A DNA stretch of 64,000 bases from Escherichia coli (GCF_011045215.1 NZ_CP049201.1), one strand, 5' to 3'. Positions 8,667 to 59,294 are shown, numbered from the stretch's first letter. Notes: generated by a model from the letters alone, not told the origin. Numbers and translations are program-made.

Positions 8667-8742
<76 letters not shown>

Positions 8743-40876: not shown

Positions 40877-41184
40877 ACATACCTCCTCGACGGCTGACTT
40901 TGTGTGCTCTCCTCTGTGATGATCTTCTGATTTAATTTTAATCAATGATAAAGAAGTTGATGGTGACCATTTCTGATGCAGTTGTTCAAAAAAACACCAT
41001 GATGAAGTGTGATGAACTTCAAATCAGCGTGTTAGTCCACTTTGGTGAAAGATGAGATTTATTTGTCGGCTGGCCTTGAGTTTAGCGGGGTATGTCAGTA
41101 CTATAACGCGTCATTTTTCAGCCGACCTTTAACACGTTCCTTGCCTCCCCGGGATTCGGCTGACCCAGACAGGAGGCTGAATAA

Positions 41185-41598
<414 letters not shown>

Positions 41599-43728: not shown

Positions 43729-44078
43729 TTATTCTACGCTGTCGGTATTGGTGTATTCGTTAATCAGCAGGTTAACCAGCCACAAAAAGCCATTGAGAAA
43801 ATTATTGATTTTACATGGAATTATTATATTGCCAATCCTTGGTTTTTAAAAATTGTGCATAGTGAAAATCAAAGTAAAGGTGTGCATTATGCAAAATCAC
43901 AGCGTCTCTTAGAAATTACCCATGCGCACTTGCAGTTAATGGAATCCTTATTGGATGAAGGGAAGAAACACAATATTTTTAAGCCAGATATCGACCCATT
44001 TCAGGTGAATATTAATATTGCTGCGCTTGGGGGATATTATTTGATCAACCAGCATACGCTTGGCCTGGTTTATCCGGT
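43729..44078 (+). pseudogene. ytfA: TetR-family regulator fragment (C-terminal ligand-binding region only), apparently interrupted at its 3' end by the IS element
   Basis: Open frame from 43729 (GTG 43855 is the first listed start) encodes ...[30 protein letters not shown]...[16 protein letters not shown]..., resembling a TetR C-terminal domain; no N-terminal HTH is encoded upstream; from about 44080 the frame reads antisense through IS sequence. Confidence 0.6.
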
Positions 44079-44130
44079 GCGCCGTAAAACCCCGTCCTTC
44101 AGGGCGGGGATATACGGCGCGGTTTTCCAC

Positions 44131-44558
44131 CTAACCAGGTGTTTGCTGTTGTTCAATGTATTGACGGATGGCGGATATTGGCGCACCTCCGCAGCTACTG
44201 GCAAAATAGCCAGGACTCCACAAAACGCCTTTGTAGTAATACCTGACTGCAATATCTGGTCGATCTCGTCGCAGTAACCTACCCGATACGCCTTTGAGGC
44301 TGTTTACCAGACTGGATATCGCCAGTTTGGGAGGATAGTTAATTAACAAACGTGATCTGGTTCGCCATCCATTTCAACCAGTTCAGCTTCAAAATCAGCA
44401 CATACCTTTGAAAAGTAAGTGCGTAGTTTTTCTGTCGCGTCATGGTCAAAAATCTGGCGTCGGTATCTGGTGACAAAGACCAGGTGAACATGCATCAGGA
44501 AAACACAATGCCTTCCACGCCGGATATCGGTTTCTTTTTTCACAGACCAAAGTATCAT
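44131..44558 (-). pseudogene. tnpA: IS200/IS605 TnpA (Y1 HUH transposase), disrupted by a frameshift
   Basis: Two adjacent ORFs in different frames (44343..44558 and 44131..44349) together give a ~143-aa TnpA-like protein: ...HCVFLMHVHLVFVTRYRRQIF...EPDHV / [26 protein letters not shown]...[26 protein letters not shown]; the break is inside the HUH motif. Confidence 0.8.
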
Positions 44559-44565
44559 TTGGCCT

Positions 44566-45774
44566 GTGAAACGACTACAGGCATTTAAATTCCAGTTAAG
44601 ACCCGGTGGTCAACAGGAGCGTGAAATGAGGCGCTTCGCAGGCGCATGTCGTTTCGTTTTCAATCGTGCTCTGGCACGTCAGAATGAGAATCATGAGGCC
44701 GGTAATAAATACATCCCTTACGGGAAAATGGCTTCCTGGCTGGTTGAGTGGAAAAATGCCACTGAAACGCAATGGCTTAAAGATGCCCCGTCACAGCCAT
44801 TGCAACAGTCACTGAAAGACCTTGAGCGGGCTTACAAAAACTTCTTCCGGAAGCGGGCTGCTTTTCCCCGATTCAAAAAGCGGGGACAGAATGATGCATT
44901 CCGCTACCCGCAGGGCGTTAAGCTCGATCAGGAAAACAGTCGTATTTTTCTGCCGAAACTTGGCTGGATGCGCTACCGGAATAGCCGTCAGGTCACGGGT
45001 GTTGTGAAAAATGTCACTGTCAGCCAGTCCTGCGGTAAGTGGTACATCAGTATTCAGACTGAAAATGAAGTATCAACTCCGGTTCACCCTTCAGCATTAA
45101 TGGTCGGACTGGATGCTGGCGTGGCTAAACTCGCCACGCTGTCAGATGGCACAGTCTTTGGGCCTGTAAACAGTTTTCAGAAAAACCAGAAGACGCTGGC
45201 GAGACTTCAGCGACAGTTAAGCCGCAAGGTCAAATTCAGCAACAACTGGCAGAAGCAGAAACGCAAAATACAGCGACTGCATTCCTGTATCGCAAATATC
45301 CGCAGGGACTACCTTCACAAAGTCACAACGACCGTCAGCAAAAACCACGCAATGATAGTCATTGAGGATTTGAAGGTCAGCAACATGTCAAAGTCAGCAG
45401 CGGGTACGGTCAGCCAGCCGGGGCGCAATGTCCGGGCAAAATCAGGTTTAAACCGTTCGATACTGGATCAGAGCTGGTATGAAATGCGCCGCCAGCTTGA
45501 GTACAAGCAGCTCTGGCGTGGCGGTCAGGTGCTTGCTGTTCCGCCAGCGTACACAAGCCAGCGTTGCGCGTGCTGTGGTCATACAGCGAAAGAAAATCGC
45601 CTGTCACAAAGTAAATTCAGATGCCAGGCATGTGGATATACAGCGAACGCTGATGTAAATGGCGCTCGTAACATTTTAGCGGCGGGGCACGCCGTTCTTG
45701 CCTGTGGAGAGATGGTGCAGTCAGGCCGCCCGTTGAAGCAGGAACCCACCGAAATGATTCAGGCGACAGCCTGA
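44566..45774 (+). CDS. tnpB: TnpB (OrfB) of an IS200/IS605-family element; RuvC-like RNA-guided endonuclease family
   Basis: 402-aa ORF from GTG 44566; N-terminus [13 protein letters not shown]...[12 protein letters not shown] typical of TnpB; RuvC-I (VGLDAGV), RuvC-II (IVIEDLKV), zinc finger (CACCGH...CQACGY) and RuvC-III ([10 protein letters not shown]) all present; an alternative ATG at 44626 with an AGGAG SD would give 382 aa. Confidence 0.9.
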
Positions 45775-45908
45775 ACGTAGCAGGGATCCACGTCCTTCAG
45801 GGCGTGGAGGATGTCAACACATCAGTATGGTTTCACCCCAGGCACTGGAAGCCAGACGTAAGGTCATCAAAGAGACAATCCTTAGCTGGCTTTTGGTTGA
45901 CCCTTCAT

Positions 45909-46547
45909 CTACCGCGCACGAATAAAACTGCCATCCGGCTGGCGGGTGAACAGGACCTGTTGATTATTCCCCGTATCAATGGTTAAGCCCGTCACCACGC
46001 CGCTGGCGTTCTGGCGGATTTTCACCATCTGCCCGTTTTGCAAATTACTCAGCGGCTTACCCGCGCCTTCTACCTGCGCCATTGCATAGACATCGGTAGC
46101 GGGCAGTCCGTGGTCGCGGAACAGCTGCGCCATCGTTTTACCGGGTTCGACACGGTAAGAGCGCCATTGATTATCAATTCCGCTATCTGGCTGGAATGGT
46201 TGCGTTTGGGTAGTTTGCGGCTGTTCTTCTGGCTGGCCTTCCTGTATAGGTTCTGGAGCGACCGGAGCCACCTGATCAGGATCATTTTGTGGTGTGACTA
46301 ATTGCGCCCGCAGCTGTTCTTCTGTCGGCGGTTGTGATTGTGACTGAATATCTAACTGCGCTTCACGCGTCACCACCGGCGCGTTGAGCGTATCATCAGA
46401 TGGAAGCAGAAATCCGACCACCAATACAATGGCGGCAATAATGATCCCCCGACGATGCATCGGCGGCAGCGGGTCCATGAAGCGAAAATTGTCCGGCGCG
46501 TGCCAGACTTTCTCCAGGGTTGGTTTTAGTTCAAAGCGCCCGGGCAT
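45909..46547 (-). CDS. ytfB: Cell-division protein YtfB (OapA/LysM-like domain)
   Basis: 212 aa from [21 protein letters not shown]; TM anchor, Pro/Gln-rich linker, C-terminal OapA domain. Confidence 0.88.
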
Positions 46548-54385: not shown

Positions 54386-54574
54386 CAGGGACATCCTTTT
54401 ATCATCGGGAATACGAAAGAAAAGGGAGAATAAACGTCTTACTTATAGAACAGTGAAGAATGCCACAATTTTACGCTTTGAAAATGATGACACTATCACA
54501 GTTGGCGCATTCATTAACGATAGGGTATAAGTAAAACAATAAGTTAACACCGCTCACAGAGACGAGGTGGAGAA

Positions 54575-59018: not shown

Positions 59019-59194
59019 ATCTTATCCGACCTTTCAGGCCAGATCCTCGGAAGGGGAAGTTGATTAATTTGTGTGAAATACACATTGAAAGCCGATTCGA
59101 AGAAAGTGAACCGGCATTTTCAGTGGCTAGTATAGCGTAAGGTACTGTAAAGTCGCCAGAGGGTTAAAATTCAGACTGCTGATAAATGCAATAC

Positions 59195-59294
59195 TGCCTG
59201 ATGCGCTATGCCGATCAGGCCTACGCAGTCCTTGCAATATATTGAATTTGGACGATTTTGTAGGCCTGGTAAGGCGTTTACGCCGCATCCGGCA
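59195..59294. repeat. BIME: two REP elements in inverted orientation
   Basis: TGCCTGATGCGCTATGCCGATCAGGCCTACG (59195-59225) and TGTAGGCCTGGTAAGGCGTTTACGCCGCATCCGGCA (59259-59294). Confidence 0.75.

Follow-up and report, generated by a model that had tools for sequence, protein, structure and literature searches.

Closest Described Systems

In ISDra2 of Deinococcus radiodurans, the structure of TnpB with its omega-RNA contains a 116-nt scaffold with four stems and a pseudoknot, followed by a 16-nt guide, and the overlap of the scaffold with the coding sequence is limited to the dispensable C-terminal tail of TnpB (PMC10097598). A closer counterpart is IS609, which is registered in ISfinder and is represented in Escherichia coli K-12 by insQ (ydcM, b1432) and the tnpA pseudogene yncK. 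The supplement of PMC12781874 lists a 207-nt “IS609 omega-RNA scaffold” and gives TTAT as the TAM (Table S2); that work was directed at trans-cleavage for diagnostics and not at the native locus. In the accessible part of the NAR 2026 paper, another TnpB was the most active in trans-cleavage, and no activity of IS609 is reported there. It was thus already known that IS609 is a catalogued element, that RefSeq names its product an RNA-guided endonuclease, and that an IS609 scaffold with a TTAT TAM had been used in a published assay. In this study, we annotated the RNA that is lacking in genome records, namely, its boundary at position 45817, five helices supported by covariation, and a predicted guide at 45818-45833.

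An IS609 Copy Interrupts ytfA

We analyzed a stretch of E. coli DNA of 64,000 nucleotides (the window), and all positions are counted from its first base. The gene order rpsR, rplI, yjfZ, ytfA, ytfB, fklB, and cycA is that of an E. coli-type chromosome segment, and a megablast comparison with 5426 complete E. coli genomes identified the element within ytfA as IS609, which belongs to the IS605 group of the IS200/IS605 family. Over its full length, the copy in the window shares 97.6-99.8% identity with annotated IS609 copies, among them that of K-12. It is 1744 bp long, compared with the canonical 1748 bp of K-12 IS609, because its tnpA lost 4 bp. In RefSeq, the neighbor of tnpB is labeled “IS609 family transposase” and is flagged as frameshifted. 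The earlier note on this DNA had mentioned neither the frameshift nor the fact that IS609 is catalogued with a RefSeq annotation as an RNA-guided endonuclease. The features of the locus are summarized in Table 1.

Table 1. Features of the IS609 copy and its surroundings (positions in the window)
Feature	Position	Strand	Remarks
IS609 copy	44074-45817	+	1744 bp, within ytfA; from the K-12 empty site and other IS609 copies
Target site/TAM TTTAT	44069-44073	+	Core TTAT at 44070-44073; abuts the left end on its 5′ side
Left-end subterminal hairpin CCCCGTCCTTCAGGGCGGGG	44090-44109	+	Read from the sequence; kept in the left ends of relatives
tnpA (Y1/HUH transposase) pseudogene	44131-44558	-	ORFs of 71 aa and 72 aa; frameshift at codon 70
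tnpB (insQ)	44566-45774	+	402 aa, GTG start, intact ORF; RefSeq CDS label “RNA-guided endonuclease InsQ/TnpB family protein”
Upstream helix P0	45679-45684/45690-45695	+	5′ of the 118-nt core; covariation
Core omega-RNA scaffold (predicted)	45700-45817	+	118 nt, four helices P1-P4 and tail
P1	45701-04/45739-42	+	Covariation
P2	45709-16/45725-31	+	A45712 bulged; A45710/C45730 mismatch in the window copy
P3	45754-64/45769-78	+	Includes the tnpB stop codon (45772-74)
P4 (right-end hairpin)	45787-95/45800-08	+	Covariation
Invariant tail GGAUGUCAA	45809-17	+	3′ end of the scaffold
Predicted 16-nt guide CACATCAGTATGGTTT	45818-45833	+	First bases of the ytfA 3′ fragment
ytfA 3′ fragment (TetR family)	45818-45925	+	RefSeq annotation; alignment to K-12 ytfA

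Both ends of the element could be placed to the base. The 5′ fragment of ytfA (43780-44073) ends directly at the left end, and the uninterrupted ytfA of K-12 reads ...GGTTTAT followed immediately by CACATCAG... (in a longer reading, ...GGTTTAT and then CACATCAGTATGG...). The element itself terminates at 45817 with ...GGAGGATGTCAA, and IS609 copies with exactly these ends were found at four further chromosomal sites, in yedK, a DUF1869 gene, ydcO (the K-12 site), and yfeD. The right-end hairpin that had been proposed from the sequence at 45787-45808 was confirmed as a stem (45787-45795/45800-45808) with a TTCA loop, and the hairpins at 44090-44109 on the left and 45788-45807 on the right are nearly identical. 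The end had been expected just past 45810; however, the end of homology, the empty site in K-12, and the other copies place the element boundary at 45817 instead. TTAT lies immediately 5′ of the left end (CCGGTG or CTGGTG) at 5/5 of the E. coli IS609 sites sampled. In enterobacterial relatives, the left flank is TTTAT or TTTAC, and in more distant relatives it is TTGAT. In K-12, where no IS is present in ytfA, this gene is already annotated as a pseudogene, and IS609 therefore probably landed in a gene that was already decaying.

The window and K-12 carry one and the same element, with 97.7% identity along its full length, but at different sites, ytfA in the window and the ydcL-ydcO interval in K-12. 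The K-12 copy likewise has TTAT as its left flank, divergent tnpA and tnpB genes, and a tnpA pseudogene, and the last 140 nt of its insQ copy, corresponding to the scaffold, are identical to those in the window. The K-12 guide differs from that of the window because the insertion site differs. The tnpA lesions are also not the same: the K-12 gene has L96* and has lost its stop codon, whereas the window gene has a 4-bp deletion. The element is an ordinary, catalogued IS609 copy with an intact tnpB, a well-conserved scaffold, and a broken tnpA.

tnpB Encodes a TnpB Protein With an Intact Catalytic Center

The earlier note had attributed to this gene a TnpB with a RuvC D-E-D triad and a CxxC...CxxC zinc finger, and every motif that it named was found in the 402-aa ORF. 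The RuvC-I motif VGLDAGV occupies aa 180-186 (D183, codon 45112-45114), the RuvC-II motif IVIEDLKV occupies aa 264-271 (E267), and the RuvC-III motif occupies aa 361-370 (D363, codon 45652-45654). The zinc finger consists of CACC at aa 334-337 and CQAC at aa 353-356 (codons 45622-45633), which supply C334, C337, C353, and C356. A Pfam search of the protein returned HTH_OrfB_IS605 (PF12323, 3e-14), OrfB_IS605 (PF01385, 1e-33), and Cas12f1-like_TNB (PF07282, 2.7e-24), i.e., the layout of TnpB/OMEGA nucleases with an N-terminal HTH/WED-REC part, an OrfB_IS605 RuvC core, and a zinc-ribbon TNB domain. The NCBIfam model NF040570 (“RNA-guided endonuclease TnpB”) matched with 385 bits against a cut-off of 100, and phmmer matched the ISDra2 TnpB structures (8h1j, 8bf8, 8ex9) with an E-value of ~3e-54. 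Given the Pfam, NF040570, and ISDra2 matches, the set of motifs in this ORF is not due to chance.

The ISDra2 protein (PDB 8h1j, 8bf8, 8exa) is homologous along its length, with the D-E-D triad and the zinc finger in alignment. When residues were counted in the phmmer alignment, D183, E267, and D363 were aligned with D191, E278, and D361 of ISDra2, and all four cysteines were retained. A catalytic substitution relative to ISDra2 had been named beforehand as the observation that would speak against an active nuclease, and the alignment contains none. The protein of the window copy departs from the E. coli consensus at eight residues, none of which is catalytic. An insertion of 15 aa relative to ISDra2 was observed directly after RuvC-II, at aa 277-291 (~45394-45438); it is located where the ISDra2 structure has a disordered loop.

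The segment highlighted at the outset (45620-45830) covers just the final third of the nuclease domain and the RNA scaffold. We conclude that the region, the right third of the IS609 copy, probably comprises an intact TnpB (InsQ) nuclease gene and the scaffold of its guide RNA, with an activity that is predicted from the sequence.

A Covarying RNA Scaffold Ends at the Transposon Boundary

The 3′ end of tnpB was compared with 80 loci from other species, whose TnpB proteins are 57-94% identical to that of the window. Nucleotide similarity to the segment 45600-45860 crosses the tnpB stop codon and ends exactly at 45817 in more than 40 of the 80 loci. The terminus GAGGAYGYCAA occurs once, 40-100 nt past tnpB, in 65/80 loci, and each locus has its own flanking sequence beyond it. 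TnpB/OMEGA systems have a structured scaffold that overlaps tnpB at its 3′ end, continues through the right end, and goes no further than the transposon; the boundary at 45817, the covariation of P0-P4, and the collinearity with a published scaffold, as described below, show this arrangement in the window.

For the analysis of covariation, the 14 closest sequences were aligned without gaps over 118 nt (45700-45817), and the four-helix structure was specified by hand (alignment A3). In A3, 95.5% of cells form a standard pair, compared with 34-51% in controls in which the structure was slid along the alignment, and 10 pairs are changed on both sides, compared with 1-3 in the slid controls. None of 500 shuffles reached the observed value for the cells paired, for the pairs and cells changed on both sides, or for the covariation score, and 107 of 500 did so for further pair types. 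A covariance model (R1) built from A3 was used for searches and for an alignment of 78 sequences (A4). Across the 64 kb of the window, R1 has a single match, with 134 bits, and it has one strong match adjoining tnpB in 76 of the related loci. One weak second match (20.6 bits, E = 0.0036) was observed in a Hahellaceae MAG (L020:4858-4971), ~1.1 kb downstream of the main element; this match may represent a right end that is degenerate or stands alone. In A4, 27/30 pairs are changed on both sides, 95.1% of cells pair compared with 40-56% in the slid controls, and 0/500 shuffles reach the observed values. A3 is the cleaner evidence, because A4 was fitted to the covariance model. RNAalifold applied to a gappy MAFFT alignment of 66 sequences recovered just the base of P4.

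The upstream helix P0 shows the same behavior: 4/7 pairs are changed on both sides, 84.7% of cells pair compared with 29-62% in the slid controls, and 46 cells are changed on both sides compared with 1-14. The portion of the RNA that contains P0 can be dispensed with in ISDra2, and the paired changes of P0 are visible in the tail of TnpB as correlated Ala/Arg exchanges. In the larger relatives, long hairpins are inserted in P2 and P4 at the same positions, which fits RNA helices. The entropy at third codon positions is 0.1-0.7 at codons 379-382 and 390-396, compared with ~1.3 across the gene, and the amino acids of the C-terminal tail of TnpB are less conserved than the remainder of the protein. 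The single-sequence fold of the scaffold was more favorable than those of shuffled sequences (z = -2.87). The low third-position entropy, the insertions in P2 and P4, and the fold score fit a constraint at the RNA level. At the P2 pair 45710/45730, the A/C mismatch is found in the copies in the window and in K-12 insQ; most other E. coli copies have T at 45730 (A-U), and the relatives have A-U or G-C.

The published IS609 scaffold of PMC12781874 aligns without gaps to 45611-45817, with 83% identity overall and 86% within the core, and its final base coincides with that of the window scaffold. Among the differences in its stems, two are compensatory on both sides (A-U to G-C and A-U to C-G). 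The TnpB published with it is of metagenomic origin and just ~85% identical to the window protein. The ISAba30 scaffolds in the same source share GAAGCAGGAACCCACCGAAG, GUAGGAAUC, and GGAGGAUGUCAA with the scaffold of the window. The boundary at 45817, the covariation in A3 and A4, and the collinearity with the published IS609 scaffold are three independent results that support the expectation of the earlier note that an omega-RNA lies at the 3′ end of tnpB.

The scaffolds of the window (118 nt) and ISDra2 (116 nt) are similar in size, and both consist of several stems, a terminal tetraloop hairpin, and a short single-stranded tail ending in CAA, after which the guide begins. Both also overlap the C-terminal tail of TnpB, which is dispensable in ISDra2. 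The two systems differ in the TAM, which is TTAT for IS609 and TTGAT for ISDra2, and in gene order, tnpA and tnpB being divergent in IS609, unlike in ISDra2. They also differ in the first stem: P1 encloses P2 in the window scaffold, whereas the loop of stem 1 in ISDra2 forms a pseudoknot. A pseudoknot between the 3′ tail and a 5′ segment of the scaffold is a feature of the ISDra2 and Cas12 guide RNAs and is essential in ISDra2. A candidate for such a pseudoknot joins 45714-17 (G-R-Y-R) to 45812-15 (UGUC); this pairing is possible in >92% of the sequences, mostly by G-U pairs and with an invariant tail, and the covarying pairs in the upper part of P2 would compete with it. When the pseudoknot and stem 2 of ISDra2 were transferred to the scaffold, several pairings could be drawn, with partner columns that are invariant.

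Rfam was searched at permissive and at gathering thresholds, and no family reached its gathering threshold on the scaffold. Weak matches were found to HgcC (RF00062; 45711-45830, E = 0.014, 23.5 bits against a gathering threshold of 50), sot0042 (RF02656; 45647-45808, 17.5 bits against 88), and RAGATH-18 (RF03064; 45701-45744, i.e., P1 and P2, 25.4 bits against 44.9), all three of which are non-coding RNAs known to overlap tnpB genes at their 3′ ends. Both the terminal hairpin and the GAGGAxGUCA motif are common to the scaffold and the HgcC consensus. The scaffold RNA lies outside every curated Rfam family. Elsewhere in the window, matches at the gathering threshold were the ES239 sRNA (54386-54508), the RpsF leader (41121-41205), a tRNA (8667-8739), STnc450 (59080-59137, minus strand), and ES036 (CssrF; 59217-59259, minus strand), all of which are ordinary enterobacterial features.

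Helices near the end of such an element could also be DNA signals for TnpA, which acts on the right end in single-stranded form, rather than parts of an RNA. IS200/IS605 transposases bind subterminal hairpins, as in IS608 and ISDra2, and P4 is nearly identical to the hairpin at the left end; the covariation of P4 is therefore not specific to RNA, since P4 is also a DNA hairpin used by TnpA. However, P0-P3 are situated within tnpB, 40-140 nt from the end of the element, and the left end contains nothing that corresponds to them. They covary strongly, they match the omega-RNA stems of ISDra2 in order and size, and the stretch has served as an omega-RNA scaffold in published experiments. We consider it very improbable that the paired elements act in DNA instead of forming an RNA scaffold. 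A purely DNA-level, TnpA-related function of the helices was rejected on the grounds that P0-P3 have no counterpart at the left end.

The Predicted Guide Matches the IS-Free ytfA Allele

Because the element ends at 45817, the 16-nt guide would occupy 45818-45833, and the RNA would extend to this point or slightly beyond it. The guide CACATCAGTATGGTTT is identical to the sequence that follows TTTAT in K-12 ytfA. In the window, it occurs once, preceded by TCAA and not by TTAT, so the occupied site would be protected and would offer no target while the IS is present. A TTAT-flanked target exists solely in the IS-free ytfA allele, e.g., in K-12. The TAM coincides with the transposase target motif on the 5′ side of the left end, both at the 5/5 sites examined and in the TTAT given in PMC12781874, as is usual for TnpB/OMEGA. 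The idea of the earlier note that the locus encodes a nuclease programmed by host sequence is supported, at the level of prediction: the guide is ytfA sequence, and the TAM-flanked target is the uninterrupted ytfA allele.

Alternatively, TnpB might have been domesticated as a TldR-like RNA-guided regulator, which binds DNA without cutting it. In favor of this reading, one third of E. coli genomes retain tnpB in a fixed chromosomal position in the absence of tnpA. On the other hand, the RuvC triad and the zinc finger are intact, both transposon ends are intact, the guide is merely the flank of the insertion, and IS609 is found at at least four other sites, each with a different flank. Domestication of this kind is extremely improbable here. 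Assignment to TldR, the nuclease-dead class of regulators, was rejected, because RuvC has not been inactivated and the transposon ends have not been lost.

tnpA Decays While tnpB Is Conserved

The joint that IS609 forms with ytfA at its right end was found in 1745/5426 complete E. coli genomes (32%). We compared 14 IS609 copies of E. coli, 10 at ytfA (including that of the window) and four elsewhere. tnpA (432 bp) is intact in 3/14 copies; the lesions that disable it arose independently at least five times and comprise the 4-bp deletion, L96*, M1I, and two distinct 1-bp deletions. In the window, comparison with intact copies showed that the lesion is the loss of TCCA at codon 70, which is part of the HVH (HUH) motif, and the two halves of the gene match positions 2-59 and 61-126 of the IS200 transposase profile NF033573. 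The TCCA deletion is common to the closest E. coli genomes, e.g., XH990, and O157:H7-type strains have IS609 at the same ytfA site with an intact tnpA of 143 aa. L96* was observed at four chromosomal sites, in the copies L086 (ytfA), L089 (yedK), L091 (K-12 ydcO), and L092 (yfeD), and the ytfA copy L086 groups with IS609 copies of other sites. Either a dead element was moved by TnpA acting in trans, or gene conversion or homing occurred between copies. A change of the tnpA stop codon to Gln (*144Q) was found in 9/14 copies (L084-L089, L091, L092, and L094), for which PGAP gives the label “missing C-terminus.”

In contrast to tnpA, the full tnpB ORF is present in 14/14 copies, two of which lose just the last 4 aa through a stop codon. 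At the per-base lesion rate of tnpA, ~14 disabling lesions would be expected in the 1209 bp of tnpB, and none was found apart from this 4-aa stop, which indicates that tnpB is under purifying selection and tnpA is not. The mean dN/dS of tnpB among the 14 copies is ~0.28 (0.28-0.29), and its variable sites number 18, 15, and 39 at codon positions 1, 2, and 3, respectively. The retention of tnpB alongside a decaying tnpA fits the general pattern that tnpB genes outnumber and outlast tnpA.

These data bear on the question of whether the locus is a decaying relic, immobile since the death of tnpA, in which tnpB is intact merely for want of time and there is no functional guide RNA. Several observations are in line with such a relic, namely, the frameshifted tnpA of the window copy, the A/C mismatch in P2, the eight substitutions in TnpB relative to the consensus, and the lack of a promoter in the consensus scan. 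They are set against the contrast between at least five independent lesions in tnpA and none in the longer tnpB save the stop codon that shortens two copies by 4 aa, the low dN/dS and the excess of third-position changes (39 vs 18 and 15), and the identity of the scaffold with that of the K-12 insQ copy. We consider it unlikely that the locus is a relic.

Proposed Mechanism

By analogy with ISDra2, the module with an intact nuclease and guide RNA may work as follows. The scaffold would overlap the final 95-140 nt of tnpB as well as the right end of IS609 (43 nt), and transcription of tnpB would read through the right end into ytfA. TnpB would bind the scaffold and trim the 5′ part, leaving an RNA of ~135-160 nt, the last ~16 nt of which (CACAUCAGUAUGGUUU) would serve as the guide. 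The complex would then cut TTAT plus CACATCAGTATGGTTT, i.e., the IS-free ytfA allele. This target could be generated by precise excision or be brought in by horizontal transfer, and its cutting would bias inheritance toward the IS-bearing allele. Transcription, RNA trimming, cutting, and inheritance bias in ISDra2 and related systems have reportedly been described by Karvelis 2021, Altae-Tran 2021, Nety 2023, and Meers 2023. Because tnpA is dead in the window copy, excision would require TnpA from another IS609 copy, so the nuclease/guide module would normally have no target. A consensus scan for a sigma-70 promoter of tnpB or of the RNA found none, and the promoter and terminator scan gave nothing usable.

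Implications for IS609 in E. coli

As predicted from sequence, a nuclease/guide pair directed against ytfA without the IS is present in roughly one third of the E. coli genomes sequenced. It is conceivable, and in our view rather doubtful, that selection has kept the tnpB/omega-RNA module of IS609 after the death of the transposase in a role that is independent of transposition. If so, the module could serve, for example, in allele-specific drive or exclusion by cutting DNA with the IS-free ytfA allele (TTAT plus CACATCAGTATGGTTT) that enters the cell or is formed by recombination. In favor of such a role are the 14/14 intact tnpB copies with a dN/dS of ~0.28, the at least five independent lesions in tnpA, which is three-fold shorter, and the presence of the ytfA joint in 32% of complete genomes. 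The decay of tnpA and the conservation of tnpB at fixed sites make IS609 a tractable system in E. coli in which to ask what maintains TnpB without its transposase.
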